From NCBI GenBank assembly GCA_964480605.1, contig CAYZPG010000002.1:4871-43314 (forward strand): 38,444 nucleotides of DNA. The letters are read 5' to 3'. The notes under the pieces were generated by a model. It made no database searches and had not been told where the DNA came from. It was given only the letters and a program-made list of their open reading frames with translations. Below, piece after piece: positions 912-35,778 of this stretch. Both the position numbers and the translations under genes were made by a program. The stretch is from an uncultured Candidatus Saccharibacteria bacterium. GTDB lineage: Bacteria > Patescibacteriota > UBA1384 > JACPKC01. The number at the start of each line of letters is the position of its first letter. The stretch's first letter is position 1.

Positions 912-1523
912 ATGTTACTGCTCCAGGGCTTACAAGATCCGATCGCCTTCGTGGTATTCGTGCTTGCACTGGTGAGCGCTGTGACGATCCATGAATTCGC
1001 CCATGCCTTCGTTGCCGACCGATTGGGCGATCCAACGCCTCGGCATGCAGGCCGGGTCACCCTCAACCCCCTCGCCCACCTTGATCTTATGGGCAGCCTC
1101 ATGCTCCTGGTCGCAGGCTTCGGCTGGGGCAAACCGGTTCCGATCCAACCTCGCAATTTCACGACACCCGCGCTCGATGAGCTGCTGGTCGCCCTGGCTG
1201 GTCCAGCGAGCAACATTATCCAAGCCTTCATCGCTGGCGGACTTGCCCGGCTCGTGGCTGACACGCAGCCATTCCTCGCGAGCCTGCTGATTGTCGCCGT
1301 AGAACTCAACGTGTTGCTCATGCTCTTCAATCTCCTCCCTGTTCCTCCGCTCGACGGCTCCAAGATCTTGCGACCAATCCTCGGCGAAGAGGCCTTTCGG
1401 TCGCTCGAGGCGTTGTCACTACCTTTGATCATTGCGCTCTTCCTTCTCTTGCAAACCACGCAGCTGGGCGTCATGCTTTCACTGGCAGCAACACGGTTCA
1501 ATGCATGGATTCTCGGGGTGTAG
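912..1523 (+). CDS. Site-2 protease family (peptidase M50) membrane metalloprotease
   Basis: HEFAHA (HExxH) lies in a TM helix, and NLLPVPPLDGSK matches NxxPxxxLDG. The protein has multiple hydrophobic segments. The ORF track starts at 762, but that would overlap rpmB. The ATG at 912 follows AAGGTG and gives the usual M50 N-terminus. Confidence 0.85.
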   Translation: MLLLQGLQDPIAFVVFVLALVSAVTIHEFAHAFVADRLGDPTPRHAGRVTLNPLAHLDLMGSLMLLVAGFGWGKPVPIQPRNFTTPALDELLVALAGPASNIIQAFIAGGLARLVADTQPFLASLLIVAVELNVLLMLFNLLPVPPLDGSKILRPILGEEAFRSLEALSLPLIIALFLLLQTTQLGVMLSLAATRFNAWILGV

Positions 1524-1591
1524 CATAGTTGGCCCAATGCGCCAGGCTGGGGGTCTGGAGACCGGCGGTTCAAATCCGCCCACCCCGACCA
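1514..1591 (+). tRNA. tRNA-Pro (anticodon GGG), CCA encoded
   Basis: Hand-folded cloverleaf. Acceptor stem CGGGGTG/CACCCCG, D arm GCAT-AGTTGGCCCA-ATGC, anticodon arm CCAGG-CTGGGGG-TCTGG (T33, GGG at 34-36, G37). Variable loop AGACC, T arm GGCGG-TTCAAAT-CCGCC, discriminator A, then CCA. Confidence 0.9.
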
Positions 1592-1616
1592 ACTAATCCA
1601 CAATCCGCGTGCACCG

Positions 1617-1645
1617 TTGCCGCTGCCAGTTAGCGAATCTATATG
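1617..1645 (+). promoter_or_regulatory. Candidate sigma70-type promoter for the 1689-12350 gene block
   Basis: TTGCCG (1617-1622), a 17-nt spacer, then TATATG (1640-1645). It sits between the tRNA and the AGGAGGG Shine-Dalgarno at 1678-1684. Motif match only. Confidence 0.35.
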
Positions 1646-1688
1646 GTAGGCTGCAAGAAGCGGATCGCATCGTGGCAGGAGGGCCAAG

Positions 1689-3365
1689 ATGACCCTATTT
1701 TGGTATGAAATCGCTCACTTCTTGATTGCGATCTTCGGCATCCTCGTTGCAGTCTCGGCCGCCGCACTCTTCTTCTTAGTCATCCGATACGAGCGACAGC
1801 TGCAGACGCTCTGGCGTGCTATCGGCTTCACCGCGCTCTCAGTAGCGTTCCTTCTCTTCATCTTCGAACGCAAGTTCCCGATTCTTGAACTCCCCGCCCT
1901 CGTCACCCAGGCGTTCGCCTTCATCAGTATCTACATCGGCGTCTTTGCCGAACCAAGGCTGTCACAGCTGCTCCAAATCGGCAAGCAACCAACGGCGACG
2001 CAGCACGACACCTATCGAACCTTCAAAAACACTGTTGGCAAGCGCTCAGCCTCACCAGCGACGATCTTCTTCTTCACGCTGGCCGCGCTCGTTCTTATCG
2101 GCGCATTCTGGGCAGAATTTCTTCCCGCGTTCCTCACGGGCCTGGCTACGCTCTTTATTGCGCTCACCATTCCTATGCAGCTGCGTCGCTACCAACGTGA
2201 GCAGCAGGATCTGAAGGCTCGGCGCCTTAACCTCTACCCGCTCCTTGGATACATTGCGCTGCTCCTTGGCATGAGCGCACTCATCTTCTTCCGGCTTCCC
2301 GCGCTCGACCTTGTTGCCGTCCGCACGCTGACCCTCGAATACAGCAGCGCCTGGCAGTTCGGCCAGCTCCTCATCTTCCTTGGTTTGCTGATGCTCGCGA
2401 TGTGGGCCTGGACCTTTATCCGGGTTCGGCCGTTTCTCCGTACCTATGTCGTCTTCCTCACGATCGCCATTCTTGTCGCAAGCCTCGGATCGCTCATCTT
2501 CACCACCCTCATTTTCCGCATTGTCGAGCGTAACAACCTCTCCCTCATGACACAGGGGGCCAAGGCAGAAGAATTAGTCCTGCAGAACCGAGCCGACACG
2601 GCGCTTCTCGTCAGCCGCACCATCGGCAACGATGACGATGTACTTCGTGCGTTCACCAGTAATTCCGACCAACTCCGCGAGCTCATCAGCGAGTACCTCA
2701 ACAACTCAAGCGCCGACACCATTCGCCTGTACGACCAGGGTGGAAAAATCATCATCAGCCCTACCGACGAGCGAGATGAGGGACGCGTCATCAGTGACGA
2801 CCGGTACCTGAACTTCGTGCTCGCAGAGCGCAAGCAGCTCAAAACCTTCGATACCCGCCCAGGCATCCTGTCATCGGAAATCGTGGCCCGTGGCCTCTAC
2901 CCCATCCTCAGCACCGATCAATCCGTGATTGGAGCGGTCGAGGTTGGCTACGTCTTCGACAATGCGTTCGTCGACTTCTCAAAAGGAAAAACGGGTCTCG
3001 ATGTTACGATCTACGCCGGCAAGAAACGAGCAGCGACGACCATTCTGACCCTCGACGAGGTCTCTCGCTGGACCGGCAGCGAAGAGACTGAGCGGGCCGT
3101 CATTGAGCCGGTGCTCAACGATGGCAAACTCGTCAGCCTCGCACTCGACCGGCTCGGGCGTCCGTACTACAGCGCCTTCCAGCCGATCAAGAATGTGAAC
3201 GGCGATATCATTGGTATGACCTCGGTAGGCACGCCAACACACACACTCTTTGAAGAGACCCGGCAGCAACTCATCACTACCTTCTTGATTGTTATGCTCA
3301 TCTCGCTCCTTGTTGCCCTCGTTGGATACCTAGCCATCCGTAGCTTCGGCACCTCAAGGAAGTAG
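1689..3365 (+). CDS. Polytopic membrane protein: about 8 N-terminal TM helices, an extracytoplasmic Cache-like sensor domain, a final TM helix and no cytoplasmic output domain
   Basis: AGGAGGG lies 5 nt upstream of the ATG. Hydrophobic helices run through about aa 277. The segment ...GLDVTIYAGKKRAATTILT...GSEETERAVIEPVLNDGKLVSLALDRLGRPYYSAFQPIKNVNGDIIGMTSVG matches the Cache_3/Cache_2 pattern (D.TI..G..R.aT......G.......VL..G.......i.G..Y...Y.PI....G.iIG...vG). The last TM (LITTFLIVMLISLLVALVGYLAI) is followed by only 8 residues. Confidence 0.7.
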   Translation: MTLFWYEIAHFLIAIFGILVAVSAAALFFLVIRYERQLQTLWRAIGFTALSVAFLLFIFERKFPILELPALVTQAFAFISIYIGVFAEPRLSQLLQIGKQPTATQHDTYRTFKNTVGKRSASPATIFFFTLAALVLIGAFWAEFLPAFLTGLATLFIALTIPMQLRRYQREQQDLKARRLNLYPLLGYIALLLGMSALIFFRLPALDLVAVRTLTLEYSSAWQFGQLLIFLGLLMLAMWAWTFIRVRPFLRTYVVFLTIAILVASLGSLIFTTLIFRIVERNNLSLMTQGAKAEELVLQNRADTALLVSRTIGNDDDVLRAFTSNSDQLRELISEYLNNSSADTIRLYDQGGKIIISPTDERDEGRVISDDRYLNFVLAERKQLKTFDTRPGILSSEIVARGLYPILSTDQSVIGAVEVGYVFDNAFVDFSKGKTGLDVTIYAGKKRAATTILTLDEVSRWTGSEETERAVIEPVLNDGKLVSLALDRLGRPYYSAFQPIKNVNGDIIGMTSVGTPTHTLFEETRQQLITTFLIVMLISLLVALVGYLAIRSFGTSRK

Positions 3366-3368
3366 CGT

Positions 3369-6300
3369 ATGACATCATTCGCCCACCTTTTCCGTCGACT
3401 TATCTGGCTGCTGGTTCTCGTTGGCGCAGCTGGCTTACTGTGGCTACTCATCAATCCGCAACAACAACCGTCAACATCACAACAACCAGTCCAGTCCACT
3501 TCTGTTCAATTCACCGACCCGACGCAGTTCAGCTTCGACGTTTCGCGACTCACCATTCGGGCTGACAGCGGCGTCGAACTCACGTCACCCTCTTCAACAG
3601 CCGACATTATCCTCTTAAACCCCGTTCCCGTCCCAGCCGGCGCAACGCTTGAAGGGTTTGAGCATCAGGCTGCAATCGGCAGCGGCGGCTCGATTGCCTA
3701 TCAATTGTCGGGTGATGGTCGATCGTGGTCGTACTTTGACGGCACGGCCTGGACACTGGCCCGTGACTGCACCACTCGATGCGCCAACACGGCCGACGAT
3801 ATCGACGCGCACCTCGCAACGCTCTCCATTCCATCTGGCGCGCTCCACATCCGTACGTTCCTCACAGCCACCGCCGAACAATCACCGATCCTCAACAGCG
3901 TGACTGTCCAGACCAGCGGCGTCAGCGACGAGCAGGCGCCTGCCGACCTGGCAAGTACGCTCGACATCGCGTTTGCAACCAATAAGGTAAAAATCTGCCA
4001 CCGCACCAGCTCGTCCTCGAATCCCTACACCTTCTTAGAGGTCAACCAGAGCTCAGTCGACGGTGAGGGTGAGAATGATCACACGCATCACGACGGCGAC
4101 ATCATTCCAATTACTGACCGGAATGATGACGGACACATCGACGACGACGACTGCACTGCTCCCCAGCCAACCACGACGCTCGTTGCCACAAAGATTGTCT
4201 GCGAGAACGAAGCCGACCTTCCGAACTGGGGCGGCGGCGGTCCCAATATCACCGCCACGACGGCAACAAACTTCCTCGCAAGCCACAGTGGTTGCCATGC
4301 CCAATCCGGCTGGCAGTTCCAATGGACAGACGAAAGTGCGAGCAATCCCGGCGACACGGTTGAGCTTGTCGGCAACCCATGGACCACCTTTGGCCCAACC
4401 AATGCCTCGGGTGTCGCCCAGGTCAGCATCCCGCTTGACGACGTCGACGACGATATCTTTGTTCGCGAGCAGGTTAAGCCTGGCTACATTGGTTTTGGCC
4501 AGAGCACCGGCAGCACGAACAGTGCCGAGTTCTACTGCAATACCGACGTGATGAACTACAACAACTATGACGTTGTCCATAATCTACAGGCGAATCAAAC
4601 CTACTACTGCATCGGCTTCAACGTGCCGGCGCAAACGCCGCCAACTTGGGATAAATCGAGCATCGAGGTCAGCGGCCAATGCCAGTCCGGCACTGCCGTC
4701 TTCACCATCCGGAATACGGGCGAGGCTGGGAACGGCGACATGGACGGGCCAAGCCAGTACCGCGTGTATCGGAACGGCGTCCTCGAGCGAACCGAATCAT
4801 TCCAGCTCGCTGGCGGCGACTCACTGACTGTCTCTATTGCAGGCAACGGGGACGACCTCCGCTTGGAAGCCGATCAACGGCCTGGCCACCCTGGCAATAG
4901 CCACCCGAACGCAGTTGTTGAGGATTGCGGCACACTACCCGTAGGTGCCACTATCTCGGCGACAAAAATTGTCTGTGATGTCGAAACGGATTTGCCGAAC
5001 TGGGGTGGCGGCGGTCCTGACGTGACCAGCACCACCGCGACCGCCTTCCTCTCCTCGCACCCGCACTGCCGCCGCGAGTCTGGCTGGCAGTTCCAGTGGG
5101 CACCCGCACCGGCCACCAACCCTGGTGATAATCTTGGCGTCGTTGGTTCGCCATGGACAACGTTCGGCCCCACAAACAGCAATGGCCAAAGCACCACAAC
5201 CGTACCGCTCGCAGGCGTCGGTGATCGGATTTGGATCCGCGAAGCCCTGCAGCCAGGCTACATCGGATTCGGCTACGCCCAAGGAAACAACAGTGTCAGT
5301 GCCGAGATCTACTGCTCGAAAGACGTACTCAACTACGACAACTACGACTTCATCATTAACCCGCAGGCAAACACGACATACCACTGTGTTGCATTCAACG
5401 TGGCGGCGCCCGACACGAGCGACCACTCGAATGTCCAGGTGACTGCCGTCTGCCAAGAGCCATACGCCGTCTTCACCATTGCCAATACTGGCACCGGTCC
5501 AATGACCAGTCCGAGCCAGTACCGGGTGTACCGGAACAATACACTGGAAACGACGCAGTCCTTCCAGCTGAATGCCGGCCAAACCCTAGTGGTGACCGTT
5601 CCAGGAAACGGGGATGTCGTCCGCCTCGAGGCCGACCAACTACCAGGTCATCCGGGATCACCCCAGGCGACCATCCAGCACTGCGGCACGCCGAACCAGC
5701 CGCCAGTGGCCGTTGACGATACGAACAACACCCTCGTCAACACGCCGGTCGTGACGACGATTCTTGCCAACGATTCGGATCCGGACGGCTCGCTCGTACC
5801 AAGCTCGGTCAGCATCCTGAATGCACCCGACAACGGTACCCTGCCAACGATCGATGGCCTGACCGGTGCCGTCACGTATCTGCCAAACCCGGGTTTCTTC
5901 GGCATTGATACGTTTGAGTACCAGGTGTGTGACAATGGCGGACTGTGCGATACCGCCGTGGTGACGATTACTGTGAAGGCCCCGCCCGTGGCCGCCGACG
6001 ACGCCGTCACTACGCCCTACCAAACTCCGGTCACCATCCCGGTTCTCACCAATGACACCGATCCGGATGGCACCTTGGTGCCCAGCACGGTCACAGTCAC
6101 GGCTTCCCCCACGAATGGAACGATCACCGGTGTGAATCCGACGACGGGCGAAATCAGCTATACGCCCAACAACGGCTTCAGTGGCACCGACCTCTTCACC
6201 TACCAGGTCTGCGACAACGATGGCTTATGTGATACGGCGACCGTAGCCGTCTCGGTCAACCAGCGCGTCTTACACCCTCCAGTCGCCGTTGACGACAGCA

Positions 6301-9300
6301 CATCCACGCTACGCAACACCTCTGTTGTCATTCCTGTTCTCTCGAACGACACTGATTCAGACGGTACACTGGTGCCCAGTACCGTAACCGTTACGCTCGC
6401 CCCGCTCCATGGCACCGTCACGTTTGTAAACACGCTCACGGGTGCGATCACGTACACACCAACGACCGGCTTTACGGGCACGGATCAGTTCACCTACCAG
6501 GTCTGCGACAACGACGGCTTGTGCGATACCGCCGTGGTGACCATCCACGTCACCGCACCACCTCTCGTGCCACCCGTCGCGAATAACGACACGGCGAGCA
6601 CCCAGCAAAACGTACCCGTGCTTATCCCCGTGCTCGGAAACGACACTGATGCCGACGGCGTACTGGTACCAAGCACAACGACGATCACCATCGCACCACT
6701 CAATGGCACAACCAGCATCAATCCGACCACGGGTGAGATTACCTATACACCGAACACCGGCTTCACCGGCCTCGACACCTTCACCTACCAGGTCTGCGAC
6801 AACGACGGTCTGTGCGATACGGCCCTCGTCTCCGTTGCCGTCAACCCGCCTGCACTCGTGCCGCCAGTCGCAACGAATGACTCGGCCACGACCGACCAAG
6901 ACACCGCCGTTGTGATTGCTGTACTGACCAATGACACCGACAGCGACGGGGTTCTGGTGCCAGGCACGGTCCATGTCGTTACACCAGCACTCCATGGAAC
7001 GACGAGCATCAATACCCTGACCGGGGAGATCACGTACACACCAACTGCTGGCTACTCAGGCACCGATGTGTTTACGTACGAGGTCTGTGACGATGATGGC
7101 CTGTGCGATACCGCCACCGTGACAGTGACGATCCGGCCCGGCATTACCATCTTTGCCCACAAAATTGTCTGTGAGGATGAGGCTGACCTACCAAACTGGG
7201 GTACTGGTGGGCCAAACATCACCGCCGCAACCGCCACCTCCTTCATGGCTACTCACCCAAACTGTGCTCTTACGAGCGACTGGAACTTCCAATGGGGACC
7301 GACCTCGGTTGGGAATCCGGGCGATAACACCGGAGAGGCCGCACCTAGCACCGGATACACCACCTTCGGCCCGACCAATGGCCTTGGCGTCGCCCAAGTC
7401 ACCCTGCCTGCGAGCGCTGTCACGAGTCGAGTCTGGCTCCGCGAGGTCTGGCAGCCTGGCTTCATTCCCTTCACGTACGGCACGTCAGGCAATAGCAATA
7501 ACGTCAGTGCGGAATTCTACTGTCACACCGATGTGTTGAACTACGACAACTGGGATTACATTGACAACATCACGCTCGGCAGCACCTACTACTGCGTAGG
7601 GTTCAACGTCGCCGAGATTGAACCCGAACCCCCCGTCGCCGTTGATGATGCGGCGACCACGAACGAGGACGCTCCAGTGACGATCGATGTTCTCAGCAAT
7701 GACACCGATCCAGATGGCGTACTCGTGCCAAGCACGGTGACTGTCACTGTCAATCCAACCAACGGAACGATCACCAGTATCAACCCGACCACGGGTGAGA
7801 TCACCTATACGCCGAACACCGGCTTCACCGGCATCGATGTCTTTACGTACGAGGTCTGTGACGATGACAGCCTCTGCGATACAGCCGTCGTAACGGTCGT
7901 CATTGAGCCTGTCCTTATTCTGCTGCCACCTGTCGCCAACGACGACGCAGCGACGACTCCTCCCGCCACCCTGGTTACCGTTACCGCCCTTGCGAACGAC
8001 ACCGATGCCGATGGCGTGTTACTGCCGAACACCGGCCTCATCATCAGCTTGCCAACAAATGGCAGTGCCAGCATGAGCCTGGTCACTGGCGATATTACCT
8101 ACACGCCGAACGTAGGGTTTAGCGGCACCGATACACTCACCTACCTTATCTGTGACAACGACGGCTTGTGCGATACGGCGGTGGTGACAATCACGGTCAC
8201 TGAGCCAGCACCAATTCCGCCAGTCGCGAACGACGATGCCGCCGTAACACCCGAAAATACGCCTGTCACGATTGATATCCTTGTGAACGACTCGGATACC
8301 GATGGCATTCTTGTACCAGCAACAGTGAGCATTCTCGTACCGCCATCGAATGGAACGATTGCTGCGATCAACACGGGCAACGGTGCCATTACCTACACCC
8401 CGAACACCGGCTTTACCGGCCTCGACACCTTCACCTACCAGGTCTGCGACGACGATGGCCTGTGCGATACGGCGGTCGTGACGGTCGGCGTGAACGATGT
8501 GCCCGTCCCGCCCGTTGCGAATAACGACACCGCAACAACATCGACGAACACTCCGGTCACGATCTCACTCCTCGCGAACGACTTCGACATTGATGGCACC
8601 CTGGTTCCAAGCACCGCTAGCGTTGTCTCTCAGCCAACCAGTGGCAGCGTCGCACTTGATAGTAGTGGTACAGCTACGTACACGCCAAACACAGGGTTTA
8701 GCGGTACCGATCAGTTCACCTACCAGATCTGCGATAATGATGGCTTGTGCGATACAGCCGTGGTAACGATCACGGTCACGCCACCCGGAACGCCTCCGAC
8801 ATTGCCGACGCCACCTCCCCCACCGCTTGTCGTACCAACGTCTGTCCCGCTCGCCACAACCGCGATTCCAACACCACCCGCACTTGGCAACTTAATCTTT
8901 GGCGCTAACCAGTTTGTCTTAGCCGCCCAAAGCCAACCGCTCTCATCTCATGGTGTCTTACAGATCACAGCCAATGAGCCCCAGACCTTCTACCTCGAAG
9001 CGAAAGGCGCCACTGCTGCCAACCTCATCAACCTCACCACACAGACGATCTACCCACTCACCTTCGACGCGGACATCAAGCTCTGGACCGCCACCGTTTC
9101 CTTCCCCGACGCAGGCACGTATCAGCTCCAAGGCCAAATCAGCAACGGTAGCCAAAGCTACGCTCGCGAGATCAACCAAGTGGTCGTCACCGACCCGTCG
9201 ACGGTGACAGTGAACGGCAACCAAGTCGAGGCAACGGTCACCGTATTCGAGCAGGACATCGCCACCGGCAACTTCCACACCTGGAATGGCTCGAGTTATG

Positions 9301-9980
9301 CCCAACCGAATCCGTTCTTCGTCCCTGGCACCTTCTCGCTTGTCCTGCCAGAGGGTGAGTTCTACCTCCGCGTCGAAAGCCCTGGCTACAACAGCGTTAC
9401 CTCAAGAATCGTCTCGCTGGACAGTCAAAGCTTCGTGACGGCTCAAGTCGCCCTTGACCAACCGGCCAACATCTTCGCCCGCCTACTCAACCGCTTCTCC
9501 CGCAGCAGTCAAGCCGACAACTTTGCGATCACCGTTACCACGCTACCTACCGTCGAGCAAGTACCCTTGAACGAGCCGGTGCCTGCTATTACCGCCCATA
9601 CAGCCACGACGCCCGACAGCGACCTACTCGGTTCGATCACGACGCCGACCGTACTCATGGTCTATAGCAACTGGAACACGCTCGCCCAGGAGCAGCTCCA
9701 GGTCTTCGCTGCCACCGCAGAGGCAATCGGTACCAGCGTCACCTTCCTACCCCTCTCAACGATGGACCCGGATGCTGACGACGCATCGTACCTAGCGCGC
9801 GGCCAGTACAATCTCGAGCTCTTTAAACCGACCGACAGCTTCTTCGACCAGTACTTTATTGGCAGCCTGCCCCACTTCTTCTTCCTCGACAGCGAGCACC
9901 GACTCATCCGCAGCCTCGTAGGGCCACAGTCCGTCCGTTCTCTTACCGCGCTCGTCGAGAGTACGCTGCTTGGCCGGTAA
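3369..9980 (+). CDS. Giant (2,203 aa) N-terminally anchored mosaic surface protein / putative adhesin
   Basis: The ATG is 3 nt after the upstream stop, with AAGGAAG 8 nt upstream. Domain order by residue: aa 1-30 signal-anchor helix, aa 45-185 unassigned beta-rich domain, aa 206-262 His/Asp-rich ICH...NPY segment. Then A-B-A-B modules at aa 271-773, five ~95-aa repeats, a third A module and four more ~95-aa repeats. These are followed by a Pro-rich linker (PPGTPPTLPTPPPPP), a carboxypeptidase-regulatory-like beta-sandwich at about aa 1953-2030 and a thioredoxin-fold C-terminus. There is no LPXTG or other C-terminal sorting signal. Confidence 0.9.
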   Translation: MTSFAHLFRRLIWLLVLVGAAGLLWLLINPQQQPSTSQQPVQSTSVQFTDPTQFSFDVSRLTIRADSGVELTSPSSTADIILLNPVPVPAGATLEGFEHQAAIGSGGSIAYQLSGDGRSWSYFDGTAWTLARDCTTRCANTADDIDAHLATLSIPSGALHIRTFLTATAEQSPILNSVTVQTSGVSDEQAPADLASTLDIAFATNKVKICHRTSSSSNPYTFLEVNQSSVDGEGENDHTHHDGDIIPITDRNDDGHIDDDDCTAPQPTTTLVATKIVCENEADLPNWGGGGPNITATTATNFLASHSGCHAQSGWQFQWTDESASNPGDTVELVGNPWTTFGPTNASGVAQVSIPLDDVDDDIFVREQVKPGYIGFGQSTGSTNSAEFYCNTDVMNYNNYDVVHNLQANQTYYCIGFNVPAQTPPTWDKSSIEVSGQCQSGTAVFTIRNTGEAGNGDMDGPSQYRVYRNGVLERTESFQLAGGDSLTVSIAGNGDDLRLEADQRPGHPGNSHPNAVVEDCGTLPVGATISATKIVCDVETDLPNWGGGGPDVTSTTATAFLSSHPHCRRESGWQFQWAPAPATNPGDNLGVVGSPWTTFGPTNSNGQSTTTVPLAGVGDRIWIREALQPGYIGFGYAQGNNSVSAEIYCSKDVLNYDNYDFIINPQANTTYHCVAFNVAAPDTSDHSNVQVTAVCQEPYAVFTIANTGTGPMTSPSQYRVYRNNTLETTQSFQLNAGQTLVVTVPGNGDVVRLEADQLPGHPGSPQATIQHCGTPNQPPVAVDDTNNTLVNTPVVTTILANDSDPDGSLVPSSVSILNAPDNGTLPTIDGLTGAVTYLPNPGFFGIDTFEYQVCDNGGLCDTAVVTITVKAPPVAADDAVTTPYQTPVTIPVLTNDTDPDGTLVPSTVTVTASPTNGTITGVNPTTGEISYTPNNGFSGTDLFTYQVCDNDGLCDTATVAVSVNQRVLHPPVAVDDSTSTLRNTSVVIPVLSNDTDSDGTLVPSTVTVTLAPLHGTVTFVNTLTGAITYTPTTGFTGTDQFTYQVCDNDGLCDTAVVTIHVTAPPLVPPVANNDTASTQQNVPVLIPVLGNDTDADGVLVPSTTTITIAPLNGTTSINPTTGEITYTPNTGFTGLDTFTYQVCDNDGLCDTALVSVAVNPPALVPPVATNDSATTDQDTAVVIAVLTNDTDSDGVLVPGTVHVVTPALHGTTSINTLTGEITYTPTAGYSGTDVFTYEVCDDDGLCDTATVTVTIRPGITIFAHKIVCEDEADLPNWGTGGPNITAATATSFMATHPNCALTSDWNFQWGPTSVGNPGDNTGEAAPSTGYTTFGPTNGLGVAQVTLPASAVTSRVWLREVWQPGFIPFTYGTSGNSNNVSAEFYCHTDVLNYDNWDYIDNITLGSTYYCVGFNVAEIEPEPPVAVDDAATTNEDAPVTIDVLSNDTDPDGVLVPSTVTVTVNPTNGTITSINPTTGEITYTPNTGFTGIDVFTYEVCDDDSLCDTAVVTVVIEPVLILLPPVANDDAATTPPATLVTVTALANDTDADGVLLPNTGLIISLPTNGSASMSLVTGDITYTPNVGFSGTDTLTYLICDNDGLCDTAVVTITVTEPAPIPPVANDDAAVTPENTPVTIDILVNDSDTDGILVPATVSILVPPSNGTIAAINTGNGAITYTPNTGFTGLDTFTYQVCDDDGLCDTAVVTVGVNDVPVPPVANNDTATTSTNTPVTISLLANDFDIDGTLVPSTASVVSQPTSGSVALDSSGTATYTPNTGFSGTDQFTYQICDNDGLCDTAVVTITVTPPGTPPTLPTPPPPPLVVPTSVPLATTAIPTPPALGNLIFGANQFVLAAQSQPLSSHGVLQITANEPQTFYLEAKGATAANLINLTTQTIYPLTFDADIKLWTATVSFPDAGTYQLQGQISNGSQSYAREINQVVVTDPSTVTVNGNQVEATVTVFEQDIATGNFHTWNGSSYAQPNPFFVPGTFSLVLPEGEFYLRVESPGYNSVTSRIVSLDSQSFVTAQVALDQPANIFARLLNRFSRSSQADNFAITVTTLPTVEQVPLNEPVPAITAHTATTPDSDLLGSITTPTVLMVYSNWNTLAQEQLQVFAATAEAIGTSVTFLPLSTMDPDADDASYLARGQYNLELFKPTDSFFDQYFIGSLPHFFFLDSEHRLIRSLVGPQSVRSLTALVESTLLGR
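4179..5687 (+). repeat. In-frame tandem duplication of a ~250-aa A+B module pair inside the giant CDS
   Basis: A1 4179-4625, B1 4638-4931, A2 4947-5405, B2 5418-5687. A consensus: KIVC..E.DLPNWGGGGP..T.TTA..F..SH..C....GWQFQW......NPGD....VG.PWTTFGPTN......V.......D.I..RE...PGYIGFG........SAE.YC..DV.NY.NYD......AN.TY.C..FNV. B consensus: C....AVFTI.NTG....M..PSQYRVYRN..LE...SFQL.AG..L.V...GNGD..RLEADQ.PGHPG........CG. Confidence 0.85.
5700..7136 (+). repeat. Five tandem ~94-98-aa Ig-like repeats ('tandem-95'/Big_9-type) in the giant CDS
   Basis: Each repeat reads PPVA.(D/N)D...T....PV.I.VL.ND.D.DG.LVP.....V......G......TG.ITYTPN.GF.G.D.F.Y.VCD.DGLCDTA.V.. and the copies start at aa 778, 872, 970, 1068 and 1166. 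The nucleotide stretch ttcacctaccaggtctgcgacaacga recurs at about 6197, 6490 and 6781. Confidence 0.85.
7143..7610 (+). repeat. Third copy of module A, interrupting the ~95-aa repeat array
   Basis: HKIVCEDEADLPNWGTGGPNITAATATSFMATHPNC...DWNFQW...NPGDN...TTFGPTN...RVWLREVWQPGFIPF...SAEFYCHTDVLNYDNWD...TYYCVGFNV. All four Cys positions are the same as in A1 and A2. Confidence 0.85.
7629..8780 (+). repeat. Four more tandem ~97-aa Ig-like repeats in the giant CDS
   Basis: Same consensus as 5700-7136, with copies starting at aa 1421, 1520, 1617 and 1714. About 50 nt at 8401-8450 match 6751-6800 almost exactly (one mismatch by eye). Confidence 0.85.
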
Positions 9981-10022
9981 GGTGGCATCGTGGTTCGTGT
10001 AGAATCGACAAAGGTATGATGT

Positions 10023-12350
10023 ATGGCAGATGAGTCACTGCGGGTCACGAAGCTCGCCTCCACAACCCGGCTGTCCGATCGCTACCTCACCGTGCAGATC
10101 AAAGAGGCGCCTGAACCAGGCGTAACGGCCACAGCCGGAGTGGTCGGTGCTCTTGTCGAAATTGAGGGCTCATGGCAGGCCAACGCGCAACTTGGCCAAA
10201 CGATCATCAACACCGCCGCCCGTCACTATTTCCGAGGCACACACGCCCACCCAGTTGCCAACTTCGAAGATGCCCTGAAGAAAGTGAATGAGACCCTCAA
10301 GCAGGCGACCCAGACTGGCGCGACCGACTGGATTGGCCACCTGCATGCAGCGCTCATCCTTGTCGTCGGCACCGATATCCATATTGCTGCCACCGGCCAT
10401 GTCTATGCGATGCTGTTTCGTGACGGTGTCGGTACGCCAATGCACGAGGCAACGCCCGAAGGCACGCAAGCACCGGGCAAGGCCTTTGGCGCACTCCTGT
10501 CTGGCACCATTGAGCGGGGCGACCAACTCATCCTCGGCAGCTCTGGCTTTGAGAAGCTGATTACATCGCGTGAACTTGAAACGCTCTTTGAATCCCCAGA
10601 AGCATTGGCACAGCGCCTGGGCACGCTCCTCCACAGCAAGCGTGGCGCTTGGGTGAATGCCCTACTCATCGACGCGCCCACACAGCCAAGTGCAGAACAT
10701 GCCACGACGATTGCCGTCGATCGGACTGGCATGGCACAGTGGCAAACTGCCACGGCCCAGCTCATTGCACGTACGCAACGACTCATCAAGCCGCTTGGCG
10801 CGTGGTTTGTCACCAAGCCGCACCAACCCGAGGCAGCACCGGCCTCAACAGCTGCCTCCCTCGCACCTACCGTCCCTCAAGCGAAGCAGCTGGCCGACTG
10901 GTCTGCAGCCCGGCTGGACCACCTCCACACAACCACCCTGCCGGCAGTTCGCAAGCAGGCAAGCAACCTCTGGAGCACCCTATTGTCATCGGTGTCATCA
11001 TTGAAAGCGTCCCGTGCGAACAAGGCTGGCGCGGATGCTGCAGCACCAGCAGCACAGACACCGGACGCAACGTCTCCTGCGACACACAGCCTGATCGGGC
11101 GCCCAGTCTACGCAATCCGCGACTACGCCTCGGTCGCGGCGCAAGCACAGGAACAGGTGGTACTACCCACCAATGTCACAAACTACCAGGACGACACAAT
11201 TACGCAGCAGCGGCCAACCTCACTGGCAGCACGCCTCCGCGTACCCGACCTACGCGCCTTGGCAAAACGAATCGAGTGGCGTTCAATCCTCTTCGGGCTG
11301 ATCGCACTCATCCTGCTCATCATTCTCGCCGCCAATATCACCGTCATCACCACCAAGCGCCAAACTGAGGAGTCGAAGCAGGAGCTGCTTACGCAGCTTA
11401 ATGAGCTGCAAGACACCCTGGAAGAGGCTCGGCTGGCGCGCATTTTCAACCAACCAGACAAGGCTGCTGACGCACTCGCTACGGTCCTCGCCGGACTACC
11501 CGCCCTCCTCGACTCTCCAGTTAGCGATGGTGCCCGCCTCCTTGCAGACAAGGCGCAGGGAGAGCTCGATGAGGCAACCAGCACTACCCGACTCGCCAAT
11601 GCCACGAAAATCGCGGACGTCCAAGGAGCAACCTATCTAGTCCAATCTGGCACGCTGATTAGCGTCATCAATGCAACTGGCGGCATCAACCGTATCGATG
11701 CGAGCTCCGGCCAGAACGACACGATCGCCGTACCCGGTGGCCATACCGTCCTTGGGATGACCGCGTACGACAATCAAGCGGGTATCGTGGTGCTGACAGA
11801 TGAGCCGTCAGCACACTCGCTCTCACCAGGACAAGATGGTCTCACCCCGCTCACGAGTGCCGGGGACTGGAAGGCAGGTCCCAGGATCGCCTCCTTCTTT
11901 GGCAACCTCTACGTGCTCGCCGCCGATGACAACCAAGTCTGGAAATACCTCCTCACCCAAGGCACGTATGGCAAACCCGAAGGCTTCTTGACCAACGATA
12001 CAAGCCTCTCAGGGGCTATCGACCTCGCGGTAGACGGGCAACTCTACATCCTGTTCAAAGACGGCTCGGTGAAGCGGTTGAATCGCGGCAAGGCAGATTC
12101 CTTCGCCCTTGGCGCGCCACCGAAGCCGACTGCCACGCTCACCAATCCTAAACAACTCCTGACCACACGCGATAGCAGTCGTCTGTACATCCTCGATGGC
12201 GATCGTATTGTCAGCTTCGACAAATCAGGCGCGTTCCAAGCTCAATACGCCTTCAAGGACCTCCGGAACATTCGGGCTATCTCGCTCGACGAAGGCAAGA
12301 AGGTCTTTACGCTTCTCACGGACGAGGGTGTATACACGAGCCAGTTCTAG
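10023..12350 (+). CDS. Bitopic membrane protein: N-terminal PP2C/SpoIIE-like domain (apparently degenerate), Ala/Pro/Ser/Thr-rich linker, one TM helix, coiled-coil, C-terminal beta-propeller-like repeats
   Basis: The gene starts 42 nt after the giant CDS, with AAGG 8 nt upstream. The N-terminal ~215 aa resemble the PPM fold: DIHIAATGHVYAMLFRDG vs vaNvGDSRaYL.RdG, and GDQLILGSSGFEKLIT vs GD.lLLCSDGL. The TM helix ILFGLIALILLIILAANITVITT is at about 11284-11352. The C-terminal ~250 aa carry repeated strand motifs (LYVLAADDNQVWKY, LYILFKDGSVKRL, LYILDGDRIVSFD). Confidence 0.75.
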   Translation: MADESLRVTKLASTTRLSDRYLTVQIKEAPEPGVTATAGVVGALVEIEGSWQANAQLGQTIINTAARHYFRGTHAHPVANFEDALKKVNETLKQATQTGATDWIGHLHAALILVVGTDIHIAATGHVYAMLFRDGVGTPMHEATPEGTQAPGKAFGALLSGTIERGDQLILGSSGFEKLITSRELETLFESPEALAQRLGTLLHSKRGAWVNALLIDAPTQPSAEHATTIAVDRTGMAQWQTATAQLIARTQRLIKPLGAWFVTKPHQPEAAPASTAASLAPTVPQAKQLADWSAARLDHLHTTTLPAVRKQASNLWSTLLSSVSSLKASRANKAGADAAAPAAQTPDATSPATHSLIGRPVYAIRDYASVAAQAQEQVVLPTNVTNYQDDTITQQRPTSLAARLRVPDLRALAKRIEWRSILFGLIALILLIILAANITVITTKRQTEESKQELLTQLNELQDTLEEARLARIFNQPDKAADALATVLAGLPALLDSPVSDGARLLADKAQGELDEATSTTRLANATKIADVQGATYLVQSGTLISVINATGGINRIDASSGQNDTIAVPGGHTVLGMTAYDNQAGIVVLTDEPSAHSLSPGQDGLTPLTSAGDWKAGPRIASFFGNLYVLAADDNQVWKYLLTQGTYGKPEGFLTNDTSLSGAIDLAVDGQLYILFKDGSVKRLNRGKADSFALGAPPKPTATLTNPKQLLTTRDSSRLYILDGDRIVSFDKSGAFQAQYAFKDLRNIRAISLDEGKKVFTLLTDEGVYTSQF

Positions 12351-12351
12351 C

Positions 12352-14022
12352 CTACATCGCGTCGACGGTCTGGATGCCTAAAAGGGAGAGACCGCGCTTC
12401 ATCACGTTCGTAAACGAGCGAACGATAGCTAACCGAGTCGTCCGGTCAGCAGCGACAGCGTTCATGACCGGATATTGTTCATAAAAGAGGTGGAAGTGAC
12501 TCGCGAGCTGGGCAAGATACTGCGCGAGCAAATGGGGCGACTGTCGAAGAGTTGCCTGCTCGACAACTCCCGGAAATAGCGCGAATGAGCGCAGCAGCGC
12601 AACGTACGGCGTACAGTCGCCAACAGCCGCGTCGGCCACTGCCCCTACCTTGCGGACAATATTCATTGCACGAACGTATGAATATTGAAGGTACGGCGCA
12701 CTGTCTCCTTTCAACGACAACATCCGCTCCCAGTCAAAAACAATATCGTGATTACGGTCGTGCGAGAGATCAAAATACTTCAGTGCGCCAATTGCCAACG
12801 CTTCGACTGTTCGTGTTCGCTCCTCATCAGTCAGTGCATCCGTCTCTCGAACAATAGCTCCGGACCGCCTGGCTGCCTCAGTCAGTAGCTCTTCGAGCCC
12901 AACAGTTGTCCCCTGCCGCGTACTCATTTTACCCGTCTCGGTTCGAACCAAGCCGAATTTGACATGCGTAAGGGCAATCGAAGGGGCAACAAGCCCAAGG
13001 AGTCGAGCGGCGGCGAACACCTGTCGAAAATGGAGCGCCTGCTCATTCGCAACCACGTAGATGATTTCCTGCGGATGGTAGTGTTCGACACGATACTCAA
13101 TGGCCGCCAAGTCCCTGGCTGCATAGATAGTCGAGCCGTCACTCTTCTGGAGTATCAGGGGAACCGACTCATCGGCAATTGGGATCACGAGAGCGCCCTC
13201 GCTCTCCACCGCCACGCCCTGCTGCACCGCCCGCTCTATGAGCGCCGGCACCAATGGCTGGTATCGGCTCTCACCCGCACCCGGATCATCAAAAGCGACG
13301 CCCAAACGCTCATACAACTGCTCGAACTGCCCGCGTGACACCTGCACGAAGTGCTGCCACAGCGCCCTGACAGCCTCGTCACCTTTCTCAAGCCGGTGAA
13401 ACATAGCCTGGCCCTCGGCTTTCAGTGTCGGATTCCCTGGTAACGCCGCGTGGAATCCGACGTAGAGTTCAAGCAGCCGCTCAACCGTTACGTCGTCACG
13501 GATCGCAAGATCGCCGTATGCCTGCTGGTACGCCACGGCCAAATTACCAAACTGCGTCCCCCAATCACCGAGATGGTTCACCGCCACCACCGTGTACCCG
13601 AGTTCCGCGTACAGCCGCCGAAGCGTGTCGCCAATAATGGTGCTTCGCAAATGACCAACACCCATGGGCTTGGCGATATTCGGACCAGAAAACTCGACAA
13701 CGATGGTTTGCCCCTCGCCAATCCGGCTTGAACCGTACCGTGGCGCAGCAGCCTCTTCGACGATGCCTGCCAGTACTGCCGAGGTCGGCTCGATATTCAC
13801 GAATCCGCCTTCGGCACGGACGACGATATTCGACAGCGCCTTCAGTTTGGCAGCAACGTCGAGCGCGTGATCGGCTGGATTCAAACCGCGTTGTTTCGCT
13901 GCAGCAAACACCGGCACGGCTAACCAGGCGGTTGAGCGCGGCGGCACATCAAAGCTAATCGGATACTCGGGACCAAGCAGTGCCGCGATCGAGCTACGCA
14001 GTGCAGGAAGAAATGGCGTCAT
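12352..14022 (-). CDS. argS: Arginine--tRNA ligase
   Basis: 556 aa. Class I motifs FSGPNIAKPMGVGHLRST and GKMSTRQG, plus HLGDWGTQFG and a DALR-type C-terminus ending in ...M. Its start overlaps the tyrS stop by 4 nt. Confidence 0.95.
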   Translation of the reverse strand: MTPFLPALRSSIAALLGPEYPISFDVPPRSTAWLAVPVFAAAKQRGLNPADHALDVAAKLKALSNIVVRAEGGFVNIEPTSAVLAGIVEEAAAPRYGSSRIGEGQTIVVEFSGPNIAKPMGVGHLRSTIIGDTLRRLYAELGYTVVAVNHLGDWGTQFGNLAVAYQQAYGDLAIRDDVTVERLLELYVGFHAALPGNPTLKAEGQAMFHRLEKGDEAVRALWQHFVQVSRGQFEQLYERLGVAFDDPGAGESRYQPLVPALIERAVQQGVAVESEGALVIPIADESVPLILQKSDGSTIYAARDLAAIEYRVEHYHPQEIIYVVANEQALHFRQVFAAARLLGLVAPSIALTHVKFGLVRTETGKMSTRQGTTVGLEELLTEAARRSGAIVRETDALTDEERTRTVEALAIGALKYFDLSHDRNHDIVFDWERMLSLKGDSAPYLQYSYVRAMNIVRKVGAVADAAVGDCTPYVALLRSFALFPGVVEQATLRQSPHLLAQYLAQLASHFHLFYEQYPVMNAVAADRTTRLAIVRSFTNVMKRGLSLLGIQTVDAM

Positions 14023-22419: not shown

Positions 22420-23211
22420 TTAGGAATCAAGCCGACGTTGCTTGTCCCGTAGTACGTCAGAATTGTCGATACCATCGCCGTGCAAGTCCTCAATCGTACC
22501 AGTTGTCTCAGCTCCGGATGCAGTGCCCCGAGCTGTTGCTGACATCGTCATCGATGACGCAGAACGCTCACTGGTCAAAGCCTCCTCGGGCAGCGGCGCT
22601 GGCGTGAGCGTGACGTCCGGCGCAGCCGTGTCAGCCATCCCTGTTTGCCGCTTCAATTGCTTCAGGAGTGCCCGCGTGACCTGCTTGCCATTCTGGGCGG
22701 CGGCAGCAAGCCCACGCAGCTGCTCACGACGAGCCGTTGGATTGTCGATATTTGTCAGGACTATTTCCTCCTGTGGACCCCCAGCTGTATTGATCGCCAA
22801 CGTCCCAGTATTCAACACCAGGTGGCTGATTGGATCTTGGCGCACAATCAGGTCAGTCAGATGCTTGTACTCCGCACTCACCGTATGCTGCGACAAGAAG
22901 CCGACCGACTCGATCACCCGCTCAGTGGTGAAGTAGTAACGGTATGCCACACGGAAAAACAATCCGAGAGCGATCAGGTATGCCCCGGTCAGCACGATCG
23001 CACCGACTGCGACCGTCACCACCAGCGGACCGAAGACGCCGAGCTGCGTCGCAATCAGCTCCAGTTGCTCACTCCACGCAACACGGATCACGAGTCCCGC
23101 ACCGATAATCAAGCTGCCAATAATCCCGAGGAGGATCGTGTACTTGACCGAGACGCCAAACTCATCGATGACTTCTTCCTGCGGACGGAGACTGCCAGGT
23201 GGCTGATGCAT
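22420..23211 (-). CDS. Membrane protein with bacterial PH domain (YdbS/YdbT-like)
   Basis: Two TM helices are followed by YYFTTERVIESVGFLSQHTVSAEYKHLTDLIVRQDPISHLVLNTGTLAINTAG, which is the bPH_2 pattern. The C-terminal tail is low-complexity. Confidence 0.7.
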   Translation of the reverse strand: MHQPPGSLRPQEEVIDEFGVSVKYTILLGIIGSLIIGAGLVIRVAWSEQLELIATQLGVFGPLVVTVAVGAIVLTGAYLIALGLFFRVAYRYYFTTERVIESVGFLSQHTVSAEYKHLTDLIVRQDPISHLVLNTGTLAINTAGGPQEEIVLTNIDNPTARREQLRGLAAAAQNGKQVTRALLKQLKRQTGMADTAAPDVTLTPAPLPEEALTSERSASSMTMSATARGTASGAETTGTIEDLHGDGIDNSDVLRDKQRRLDS

Positions 23212-23224
23212 AGCCGTATCCTAC

Positions 23225-24085
23225 CTACTTGAAGTACGCACGACCAGGGATACGCAAATCGACGTACTCATGGATATCGTCGTGAAAATGCTCAAATACC
23301 TGCTGGAGCGAATCGAGCTGTGGCTGTGGCGGCCGTGTGGTATCCAGCACCGCCTTCCAACCGCTCTTCGTAACGAGGGTGATTTCAAAACTGGTCTGAC
23401 CAAGCTCGAAGTGGTCAAGGCCAATCGGGAATTGGTCAACAAAGGCAGTGGCCGTATCGTGAATGAATGTAACGAACTGGCGGCTCATCACCTTCTTCCC
23501 AGGCACCACCGGCTCGGATTGCAGGTCCACCACCCGTGGAAGGGTGGCAACCTCCTCGTCCATGCCAGCGCCGGGCGCATACTGAAACACAATGCCGTCC
23601 TCGTCGAGCAAGTATGCCTCGCTGCCTCGCTCCCAACGGATCACGGGGTCACGAAGCGTCACGCCGATGCGGAGCGTCTGTGGCAAACCCTTGGCAATCG
23701 TCAGCGTCTCGATCGATGATTGTGCCGCCTTGAGACGGCTCGTCATACCACCACTTGAGTAGGTGAGAATATTCGTTCCTCGCAGCCCCTCAATCTCCGC
23801 CTGTACTGCCTCATTCACCGAGCCGACAATTTCAATTTGCTGGATCTTAAACGTCGCCGAGCCGAAGATGAGCCAGCCGACGCCACCTGCGACCATGCCC
23901 GCCACCAACACAAGCCAAACCCACCGAGGAATATCTACCCGGAACGGCGCATTGTTTGCCGGAGTCTGCCGATGGATCTTTGGGTTCTGGTACTGAGAAC
24001 GGCCGACACCCGTCATTCTCCCAGGCGCATACACGGGCTGCGTCTTAAGCGTTGTTGCCCCCCTGCCAAATCGCCTATGCGACAT
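23225..24085 (-). CDS. ftsQ: Cell division protein FtsQ/DivIB (POTRA domain)
   Basis: Basic N-terminal tail, one TM helix (WVWLVLVAGMVAGGVGWLIF), then a POTRA-like segment FKIQQIEIVGSVNEAVQAEIEGLRGTNIL. Positioned after murC in the dcw cluster. Confidence 0.8.
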   Translation of the reverse strand: MSHRRFGRGATTLKTQPVYAPGRMTGVGRSQYQNPKIHRQTPANNAPFRVDIPRWVWLVLVAGMVAGGVGWLIFGSATFKIQQIEIVGSVNEAVQAEIEGLRGTNILTYSSGGMTSRLKAAQSSIETLTIAKGLPQTLRIGVTLRDPVIRWERGSEAYLLDEDGIVFQYAPGAGMDEEVATLPRVVDLQSEPVVPGKKVMSRQFVTFIHDTATAFVDQFPIGLDHFELGQTSFEITLVTKSGWKAVLDTTRPPQPQLDSLQQVFEHFHDDIHEYVDLRIPGRAYFK

Positions 24086-25352: not shown

Positions 25353-25354
25353 CC

Positions 25355-28978: not shown

Positions 28979-29028
28979 CGCGTTGAAGCCAGTGGCCTAC
29001 CTGGTACAACGCACCTTCTTGTGCTGTA

Positions 29029-30381: not shown

Positions 30382-30384
30382 ATC

Positions 30385-30411
30385 AAGGCACCTGTTCTCC
30401 AGGTGCCTTTT
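30385..30411 (+). terminator. Intrinsic terminator of the aminotransferase gene
   Basis: Perfect 10-bp stem AAGGCACCTG-ttctc-CAGGTGCCTT running into TTTT, 4 nt after the stop. On the minus strand the same hairpin directly follows the mraY stop but has no U-tract. Confidence 0.6.
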
Positions 30412-31435: not shown

Positions 31436-31437
31436 GG

Positions 31438-32619: not shown

Positions 32620-32626
32620 GTCGTCC

Positions 32627-34336: not shown

Positions 34337-34337
34337 A

Positions 34338-34682
34338 CTACTCGACCGTCTTCAAATCCTTCGCTGGCTCGAAATCAGTGGCGAGGCTCTCACCCAGACC
34401 TTGCTGGATGGCGCCGAGCGTTTGTAGCCGCTGCGCCTCAAGCTCCATCCGCTCCACATCCTCAACCAGCTCCTGCTGCGTCTCGCCCAGTGATTGGACT
34501 TCGTAGGAGGTCGTTGCGCTCTGCGTCGTTTGGGCAAGGTAAAACAGGAGTAGGCTAGCCAGAGAAGCGATCGTCAGCACGCGAACACTCACCGGCCCGA
34601 CCTTGACGAGCTGAGGCACCGTGTGGCGCCGTGCGCCGTCGAGCTGCCCTTTCTCCATCGTCAGTGGAATTGCTGTTGCCAT
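34338..34682 (-). CDS. ftsL: FtsL-like cell division protein (TM + coiled coil)
   Basis: Small bitopic protein with TM VLTIASLASLLLFYLA followed by a heptad-like region QSLGETQQELVEDVERMELEAQRLQTL. Positioned between rsmH and ftsI. The ATG at 34682 follows AGGAGGG and is 1 nt past the rsmH stop. Confidence 0.65.
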   Translation of the reverse strand: MATAIPLTMEKGQLDGARRHTVPQLVKVGPVSVRVLTIASLASLLLFYLAQTTQSATTSYEVQSLGETQQELVEDVERMELEAQRLQTLGAIQQGLGESLATDFEPAKDLKTVE

Positions 34683-34683
34683 A

Positions 34684-35622: not shown

Positions 35623-35639
35623 AGAAACATCTCCGGAGA

Positions 35640-35676
35640 CAGCAGTTCTGGGATCCCCTCGAACCCAGAACTGCTG
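35640..35676 (-). promoter_or_regulatory. 13-bp perfect inverted repeat (stem-loop) in the mraZ-rsmH spacer
   Basis: CAGCAGTTCTGGG (35640-35652), an 11-nt loop, then CCCAGAACTGCTG (35664-35676). On the mRNA strand it ends 17 nt before the rsmH ATG, just 5' of the GGAGA SD. No U-tract follows. Confidence 0.5.
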
Positions 35677-35778
35677 GTGTGCCCCTCCTGTAAATGTGTC
35701 CCTGGATTCCGCCAATGAGGCGGCCTGGTCTTGAGGAAGACGAGGCGAATGAGTCGTCGACTCCCTCGCCGATCAGCC

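Follow-up and report, generated by a model that had tools for sequence, protein, structure and literature searches.

The stretch of DNA analyzed here (the window) comprises 38,444 nucleotides (nt) of contig CAYZPG010000002.1 of an uncultured "Ca. Saccharibacteria" bacterium, and our analysis concerns a block of three genes on its plus strand: g1 (1689..3365), g2 (3369..9980), and g3 (10023..12350), which encode proteins of 558, 2,203, and 775 amino acids (aa), respectively. The three open reading frames (ORFs) are co-directional, with spacers of 3 nt between g1 and g2 and 42 nt between g2 and g3, and the base composition is even over the whole block. On the left, it is bounded by tRNA-Pro(GGG) (1514..1591, plus strand; ARAGORN); on the right, 1 nt past the stop of g3, lies the convergent argS (12352..14022, minus strand; TIGR00456, E 3.9e-122), a gene of the conserved backbone. 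The tyrS gene is also convergent, and a class A penicillin-binding protein (PBP) is encoded beyond argS and tyrS. This layout, with its coordinates, spacing, and both flanks, agrees with a preliminary description of the locus made from the sequence alone, which had joined the three genes into one sensing-coupled system. Our results retain one of the links that it implied: g1 and g2 stand together in all informative loci and in both search directions, whereas the link with g3 is absent outside the clade of the window.

The forward survey covered 15 full-length g1 (Cache) loci in species-representative genomes. The conserved N-terminal domain (N-domain) of g2 was found directly downstream of g1 and on the same strand in every one of them (15/15), and the conserved C-terminal module (C-module) of g2 lay 3.6–9 kb further on wherever the locus was long enough, mostly within the same ORF. 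The two genes overlap or are separated by no more than 30 nt, except in L018 and L026, in which the frame of the Cache gene (L018) or of g2 appears to be interrupted. In three annotated contexts, a large gene 14–22 nt downstream of g1 encodes a protein of 1310, 1243, or 859 aa that has the N-terminal domain and the C-module (~365 aa, at 36–42% identity) in common with g2, the middles being unrelated or reshuffled. For the reverse direction, homologues of the C-module were gathered by tblastn on the loci and by a metagenome scan, as a word-indexed search alone returned one match. The scan with the C-module alignment recovered 15 loci, and g1 directly precedes the g2 N-domain in all of those with sufficient upstream DNA (L095/96, L099/L103, L102, L106, and L107). 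In total, g1 followed by a g2-type gene was found in about 20 independent Patescibacteria loci, in genomes labeled as Uhr-, Kerfeld-, Dojka-, Buchanan-, and Saccharibacteria, and no other ORF within 5 kb of the pair is shared among the 13 loci compared. The preliminary description had held that homologues of the genes should be syntenic in related genomes and had asked whether the g1 and g3 types recur beside giant genes; this proved true of g1 and the giants, while g3 homologues are not syntenic with the pair and stand beside giants only in the clade of the window.

The two genes of the pair also vary together. Distances among the g1 sequences correlate with those among the g2 N-domains and C-modules (Mantel r 0.55 and 0.63, p 0.0055 and 0.0025, respectively). 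Two complete pairs (L017 and L023; also L102/L103) are located on one 867-kb contig, JAKLDG010000001.1, where one g2-like gene encodes 2,888 aa and the other no fewer than 565 aa (1,310 aa in L012). These two pairs are mutual closest relatives in g1, in the N-domain, and in the C-module of g2, which indicates that the pair was duplicated as a unit. At the site occupied in the window, relatives that lack the pair show the order zf_Tbcl, M50 peptidase, tRNA-Pro(GGG), and g3, the distance from the tRNA gene to g3 being 70 nt in L003/L004 and 43 nt in L005/L006. Because the genes upstream of tRNA-Pro in the window (zf_Tbcl, L28, and M50) match those of the pair-less relatives, the position of g1 and g2 is exactly between tRNA-Pro and g3. 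In the neighbor-joining tree of g3, L003, which lacks the pair, groups with pair-bearing L010 as its sister (100% bootstrap), and L005, likewise without the pair, falls outside both; among close relatives, the cassette is therefore polymorphic in its presence at a single site, and g3 is retained where it is missing. These observations very strongly support the link between g1 and g2, which we read as a self-contained two-gene cassette that is restricted to Patescibacteria. It consists of an accessory membrane protein and a fibrillar surface protein, with three uncharacterized domains between them.

The membrane protein encoded by g1 has three parts: an N-terminal domain of eight transmembrane (TM) helices (aa 1–285; 1689..2543), which belongs to an uncharacterized family, an extracytoplasmic double-Cache domain (aa 286–525; 2544..3263), recognized by Pfam, Foldseek, and the conservation profile, and a ninth TM helix (3276..3344), after which the chain ends in about six cytoplasmic residues. 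The Cache assignment (aa 292–525) exceeds the Pfam cut-offs for dCache_3 (58.1 bits against 25.7), sCache_3_3 (64.9 against 28.8), and sCache_3_2 (41.5 against 28.4). In an AlphaFold2 model built from a 27-sequence alignment (predicted local distance difference test score, pLDDT, 82), the eight N-terminal helices are followed by a long stalk helix (248–313), two alpha/beta modules, and a final helix (518–557), so that the stalk and two PAS-like modules stand between TM helices, as is characteristic of Cache proteins. Foldseek matched the ectodomain to the dCache ligand-binding domains of MkcA, TlpA, DctB, LuxQ, and KinD (E 5e-9 to 1e-6), and its second module to CitA PASp (23–25% identity). 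No transmitter follows the second TM helix of the Cache domain, as the protein ends after the short tail, and the earlier view of g1 as a sensor domain without a transmitter is hence upheld. By the positive-inside rule, the topology would be N-out and C-in, with the Cache domain outside.

The 8-TM domain had no Pfam match at E<=10 and no fold match in PDB among the Foldseek top 50. An exhaustive profile search with this domain against 1.84 billion representative proteins returned 85 clusters only, in which it is always N-terminal; the proteins have either 500–610 aa (8 TM, dCache, and TM) or ~255–290 aa (8 TM alone or fragments). The only partner in these 85 clusters is dCache, or there is none, and a transmitter is absent from every member. 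A search with g1 returned 52 clusters of homologues, from Kerfeld-, Dojka-, and Uhrbacteria and unclassified Patescibacteria; full-length members have ~555–610 aa, are 40–50% identical, and are named only "cache domain-containing protein." Seven proteins of 276–288 aa (P0082, P0085, P0088, P0089, P0095, P0101, and P0104) consist of the 8-TM domain without Cache; these may be genuine genes in their own right or the product of split or truncated gene calls. A 4+4 TM duplication within the domain is weakly indicated (aa 32–68 versus 168–208; hhalign E 6e-4, probability 28%) by an alignment in which the loop, TM2, and "ERKFP" are aligned with the loop, TM6, and "RLPALD." An enzymatic role of the domain, such as that of an exosortase, was considered and dropped because none of the Cys, His, or Asp residues in the membrane domain of g1 is invariant.

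Conservation within g1 is unevenly distributed. The second PAS module (aa ~401–517) has the highest column conservation in the protein (0.70), followed by the external loop 202–219 and TM7–8 (0.68 each) and TM6 (0.64), while the cytoplasmic loops 164–180 and 87–123 have values of 0.49 and 0.37, the latter being the lowest. Two motifs are conserved as well, ERK(F)P following TM2 and RLPxLD following TM6. The low conservation of the cytoplasmic loops argues against inward signaling. In one relative, P0049 (761 aa), S-layer homology (SLH) wall-binding domains at aa ~431–470 replace the first Cache module, and this variant, together with the conservation of the outer parts, suggests a function of g1 at the outer face. 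These sequence features point to a protein that acts on the outer side of the membrane and in the membrane itself and would not signal inward.

The partner, g2, was described earlier as a giant, Cys-rich mosaic anchored by its N-terminal helix alone. Its size, mosaic structure, and mode of anchoring were confirmed; its 38 Cys residues amount to 1.7% and form regular pairs, so that it is patterned and not truly Cys-rich. The TM anchor (aa ~9–28), which is the sole hydrophobic anchor, and the conserved N-domain (aa ~45–190) are encoded at 3393..3938. According to the alignment, the N-domain carries the invariant signature YQ..D..W.Y..G..W..C..C.N, and it has no relative in PDB or Pfam. It is followed by two copies each of domain A (~150 aa, "KIVCE..DLPNWGGGGP") and domain B (~100 aa) at 4176..5690, which were delimited from the translation and tblastn and have no Pfam match. 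Nine repeats of the Big_9/Cadherin_5/tandem-95 type extend over 5691..8858 (PF17963, E 8.5e-176, nine stretches; NCBIfam NF012211, nine stretches). They are grouped as five and four, with a third copy of domain A (~7152–7613) in between, and each contains a CDNDGLCD Cys pair. No LPXTG motif is present at the C-terminus, the sole LPxTG-like string being internal (aa 1552), and no RTX or type I secretion system (T1SS) family of Pfam was matched.

The first part of the C-module of g2 (aa 1835–2050; 8871..9518), which shows 35–47% identity across classes, is beta-rich and ends in a PEGA/CarboxypepD_reg-like domain, with weak Pfam matches to PEGA (0.0011) and CarboxypepD_reg (0.0021). The last part (9519..9977) is a thioredoxin-fold domain of the ResA/TlpA type, identified by a profile search against PDB (5um7, E 3.5e-10; ResA 4nmu, E 1.6e-7; range to 1e-3). 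In the alignment, sWntlaq stands opposite SWCPDCQ, with N and A at the two Cys positions; the W–N pair (W268 and N269) is invariant in 12 sequences, and the position of the cis-Pro "SLP" is kept. With an invariant W-N-T-L-A standing in for the CxxC motif, the domain must, to judge by its sequence, be redox-dead. Overall, g2 has two conserved ends and a middle that is a lineage-variable mosaic: among relatives, the proteins have from 1,243 to 3,002 aa, and the number of repeats varies by lineage.

Based on architecture, conservation, and gene linkage, we propose that the block consists of two units, namely a g1–g2 unit of membrane dock or co-receptor and fibril, and a separate pseudo-phosphatase encoded by g3, a reading to which we would give an even chance. 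In this proposal, g1 would serve as the dock or co-receptor for the g2 fibril. Its membrane-proximal Cache module, outer loop, and TM6–8 would hold the N-domain and the anchor helix of g2, and the variable Ig-like/cadherin-like stalk would act as an extender that projects the tip outward, the tip being C-terminal since g2 is anchored at its N-terminus. The PEGA-like and dead-thioredoxin tip might then bind a conserved ligand on the envelope of a partner (host) cell. Regulation by a Cache ligand, if there is any, would take place on the outer side of the membrane or inside it, without a cytoplasmic cascade. Sensing-coupled adhesion, as suggested earlier for all three genes, is possible for the pair, with the conservation of the g1 loops speaking against its inward variant.

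Several points weigh against this proposal. The physical contact of g1 with g2 is something that we infer, and not a direct observation. The distal Cache module has invariant charged residues (D343, R346, R362, D371, and R401), which leave room for the sensing of small molecules, and conserved residues occur at both membrane faces of the 8-TM domain, which could transmit to some membrane partner. Split or short g2-like genes occur in L014, L020, and L026. Adhesins are normally variable at the binding end; the conserved tip of g2 is unusual in this respect, and a role on the cell's own envelope or a structural role fits it equally well. Finally, at least four species-level lineages keep g3 beside g2 (45–64% identity), and a lineage-specific functional link between these two genes is possible.

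The nearest functional analogue of the pair is the LapD–LapG–LapA system of Pseudomonas fluorescens, in which a periplasmic Cache/PAS-like domain of an inner-membrane protein is tied to a giant repeat adhesin. The g2 repeats match the BapA/Bap/LapF model NF045619 (E 3.8e-23), although below its cut-off. Unlike LapD, g1 has no HAMP–GGDEF–EAL part and no cytoplasmic domain at all; no gene for a C93-type protease, the counterpart of LapG, is conserved near the pair (13 loci); and whereas LapA is a T1SS substrate plugged in the outer membrane, g2 is TM-anchored at its N-terminus in a cell of the monoderm type. The Cache part of g1 resembles the sensors TlpA, MkcA, DctB, LuxQ, KinD, and CitA in its fold, its Pfam assignment, and its position between two TM helices. 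In contrast to the dCache domains of chemoreceptors and kinases, the g1 family (~85 clusters) has no transmitter, combines dCache with a unique preceding 8-TM domain, and is always coupled as a gene to one giant partner. Eukaryotes have an extracellular Cache without enzymatic or kinase output in the alpha2-delta auxiliary subunits of voltage-gated Ca2+ channels, which serve in a polytopic membrane complex and not as classical sensors. The likeness to g1 is an analogy only: the Cache fold alone is common to both, g1 has no VWA domain, and its polytopic part is in the same chain.

The tandem Big_9/cadherin-like stalk of g2 is shared with adhesins of the CshA, Bap, and SiiE types (CshA_repeat and CshA_fibril_rpt were matched), but g2 is N-anchored and lacks their LPXTG or T1SS signals. 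Its last 150 aa match the ResA/TlpA oxidoreductases by profile, including the cis-Pro "SLP"; unlike these small membrane-anchored enzymes, the domain lacks CxxC and ends a protein of 2,203 aa. We know of no described adhesive domain that is a cysteine-less thioredoxin fold. Three uncharacterized modules are defined here, namely the 8-TM domain found with dCache only, the membrane-proximal N-domain, and the cysteine-less ResA-like tip, and together they show a Cache domain in a role other than classical signal transduction.

Type IV pili and some adhesins aside, little is known about how the ultra-small, host-dependent Patescibacteria recognize and retain partner cells (Wang et al., 2023, PMC10633639). 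Adhesins, type IV pili, and type IV secretion systems have been listed as essential for epibiotic growth, and Cache proteins are not mentioned in the main text of that study (PMC10633639). In the databases, the proteins of the pair bear generic names ("cache domain-containing protein" and "hypothetical"), and these names, together with a limited literature search, suggest that the pair is apparently undescribed. With its clear boundaries, conserved ends, and variable stalk, this compact phylum-wide cassette represents a testable candidate for surface contact.

An alternative that we consider rather unlikely is that g1 is a true chemosensor. Its output would pass through the 8-TM bundle, by intramembrane signaling or gating, and would set the display, conformation, or release of g2, in a manner functionally similar to LapD without nucleotide signaling; the signal would be a metabolite from the host or the environment. 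This agrees with the nearest structural neighbors of the dCache fold, which are ligand-binding domains of chemoreceptors and kinases (CitA PASp among them), with the invariant charges of the distal module, the highly conserved TM helices, and the tight coupling of the two genes. However, no gene for a protease, kinase, or other effector is conserved beside the pair, the cytoplasmic loops are poorly conserved, and a Cache domain that is near-invariant across classes suits a fixed protein partner better than diverse ligands.

Somewhat less probable still is a structural and not adhesive pair, in which g2 would form an envelope spacer or an S-layer-associated fibril whose tip binds the cell's own wall or surface layer, and g1 would be its assembly or anchoring factor. 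The conservation of the g2 ends across classes, with only the stalk length varying (1,243–3,002 aa), the SLH domains in a relative of g1, and the common occurrence of PEGA-like domains in envelope proteins are consistent with this role. The pair is found in a modest number of lineages only, and it is present or absent between sister lineages and duplicated in one genome; such polymorphism and duplication typify accessory surface factors more than core envelope structure.

By analogy with a two-chain adhesion G protein-coupled receptor, g1 and g2 might also constitute a transmitter-less host-contact receptor unique to Patescibacteria, which we regard as a decidedly speculative idea. The Cache-headed bundle would hold the fibril while the tip engages the host envelope, and pull or ligand binding would be relayed through the 8-TM bundle by gating or by a rearrangement of lipids or partners, with no kinase, cyclase, or methyl-accepting module involved.

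The distribution of the third gene sets it apart from the dock-and-fibril pair that we prefer. Homologues of g3 formed 15 clusters, all from Patescibacteria-type assemblies, and none were found in pair-bearing loci outside the clade of the window. A g2-type giant lies upstream of g3 only within this clade, in L001 (whose g2 C-terminal end is 82% identical), L007, and L010, while L003/L004, L005/L006, and L008 have g3 but not the pair. The downstream backbone argS–tyrS–PBP1A–radA–(SOD)–recJ is kept in the g3 contexts other than L008; in this most distant context, argS and tyrS are missing, and the gene immediately downstream of the g3-like one, in the same orientation, is PBP1A. Thus, g3 encodes an independent envelope protein of the M50–tRNA-Pro/argS–tyrS–PBP1A–radA–dcw (division and cell wall) neighborhood and is not part of the cassette.

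The spacer between g2 and g3 contains a −10-like box, GTGTAGAAT (9997..10005, plus strand), that is kept as (C/G)(G/T)GTA(G/C)AAT in the window, L001, L007, and L010. The four versions (GTGTAGAAT, CGGTAGAAT, GTGTACAAT, and CGGTACAAT) are located 17–24 nt upstream of the g3 start, in spacers of 42–55 nt, and resemble the extended −10 boxes TGGTATAAT that precede the Cache genes in L027, L029, and L107. Its conservation suggests that g3 carries a putative promoter of its own. A single sensing-coupled adhesion or cell-contact apparatus, with both ectodomains sensing and the pseudo-PP2C domain as its cytoplasmic end, would account for the co-directional and tightly spaced genes, for the order g1–g2–g3 kept in L007, L010/L011, and L001, and for the lack of a predicted terminator between g2 and g3, but it is very improbable given that g3 is missing from all pair-bearing loci outside the clade, is found immediately after tRNA-Pro in the pair-less L003/L004 and L005/L006 (of which one is sister to a pair-bearing lineage), belongs to a far narrower family (15 clusters versus 52 and 85 for g1), and is preceded by this conserved box. 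Setting g3 apart avoids a false three-component model.

The sequence of g3 itself had no match in Pfam, NCBIfam, or PDB. An AlphaFold2 model built from 15 sequences (pLDDT 74; ~91 for the propeller, aa 520–775) begins with an alpha/beta domain, from which a disordered linker (~190 residues) leads to the single TM helix; a helical stalk and then the propeller follow. The cytoplasmic domain (10023..10682), assigned by Foldseek and hidden Markov model (HMM) alignments, has the fold of the PP2C phosphatase PppA (6jkv; E 2e-9, TMt 0.62–0.64). The TM helix (aa ~419–445; 11277..11357) was placed from the predicted secondary structure and pLDDT, and the extracytoplasmic part (11580..12347), delimited by pLDDT and Foldseek, is a six-bladed beta-propeller that matches Pizza6 (TMt 0.75), the ectodomain of Mycobacterium tuberculosis PknD (1rwl, TMt 0.73), and also DFPase. 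In the profile alignments with HAB1 and Stp1, Ser174 occupies the position of the motif-8 Asp, Val211 that of the motif-11 Asp, and His126 that of the GDSR Asp; in the HMM alignment, "aSSGL" stands opposite "SDGL" and "rwVN" opposite "LDN." An alignment of motifs 1 and 2 by eye gives Q25 and a retained E46. The bitopic protein with a beta-propeller ectodomain and a PP2C-like domain deprived of metal ligands, as outlined in the preliminary description, is therefore confirmed.

Matches of g3 relatives to curated families are weak: PP2C at E 0.0027, SpoIIE at E 2.8e-4, and, in one relative each, PQQ_2 at 1.5e-5 and NHL at E 0.14. The protein has the PP2C fold, lacks the aspartates of motifs 8 and 11, and remains below the Pfam and NCBIfam cut-offs. 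It does not qualify as a kinase either, as its N-terminal fold is that of PP2C, and the NHL signature scored in that one relative only. In mycobacteria, pstP adjoins genes of cell-wall synthesis, and PknD is a kinase with an NHL propeller as its ectodomain. Like PstP, g3 combines a cytoplasmic PP2C fold with one TM helix and an ectodomain, and its gene is situated beside cell-wall genes (PBP1A and dcw); like PknD, it has a six-bladed propeller. Unlike both, it has its motif 8/11 aspartates replaced, no kinase partner in the window, and a similarity below all curated cut-offs. Judging solely by its neighborhood, g3 is probably a non-catalytic PstP/PknD-like scaffold or sensor tied to cell-wall growth, and a pseudo-phosphatase of this kind next to PBP1A and dcw raises a separate question of cell-wall control in reduced genomes. 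In L008, a set of type IV pilus genes (T2SSE, T2SSF, pilins, and an LVIVD protein) and a response regulator gene are located just upstream of the g3-like gene (region 2053–8665).

The leader of g1, with its putative promoter region, occupies 1592..1688 on the plus strand. The candidate promoter previously placed at 1617–1645 failed the consensus scan, which detected no sigma-70 site in this leader; a weaker TGG-TAGGCT box is present at ~1644–1652, and a Shine-Dalgarno sequence, GGAGGG, at ~1677–1682. The pair is flanked by a 9-nt direct repeat, GCATCGTGG, at 1667–1675 and 9985–9993, one copy being 14 nt upstream of the g1 ATG and the other 5 nt downstream of the g2 stop. A repeat of this length was reached in 43 of 5000 shuffles, and GCATCGTGG was not found in the spacer of the closest relative; it could be due to chance or represent a decayed target-site duplication. 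No copy of the tRNA-Pro 3′ end was found downstream. Such mobile-element signatures around the pair are suggestive and not conserved.

In L012 (8098–9844), a 575-aa large serine recombinase (Resolvase and Recombinase domains) and tRNA-Lys are located directly upstream of the Cache gene, with a second resolvase and many small ORFs further upstream, and an integrative element may abut or carry the pair there. L030, a distant Patescibacteria locus, contains a Cache domain of 29% identity with a weak match to the first part of the g2 C-module upstream of it, not downstream (8391–8966 and 10244–10987), which may represent a diverged or rearranged pair.

In the window, the small M50 peptidase ORF (912–1523) runs at its stop ~10 nt into tRNA-Pro (1514–1591) at the predicted 5′ end of the latter, and the adjacency of M50 and tRNA-Pro is kept in L003–L006. 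The remainder of the window encodes radA, SOD, and recJ, as well as the dcw genes from mraZ to ftsQ as a complete cluster. The cluster is located on the minus strand (22420–36261) and comprises mraZ, rsmH, an ftsI-like PBP gene, murE/F, mraY, murD, ftsW, murG, murC, ftsQ, and a gene for a bPH_2 protein; it is split between mraY and murD by a class-III aminotransferase gene on the plus strand (29029–30381). The GC skew is negative in almost all 1-kb bins of the window (1–38444), and the cumulative skew drops steadily even though the genes of the window lie on both strands.

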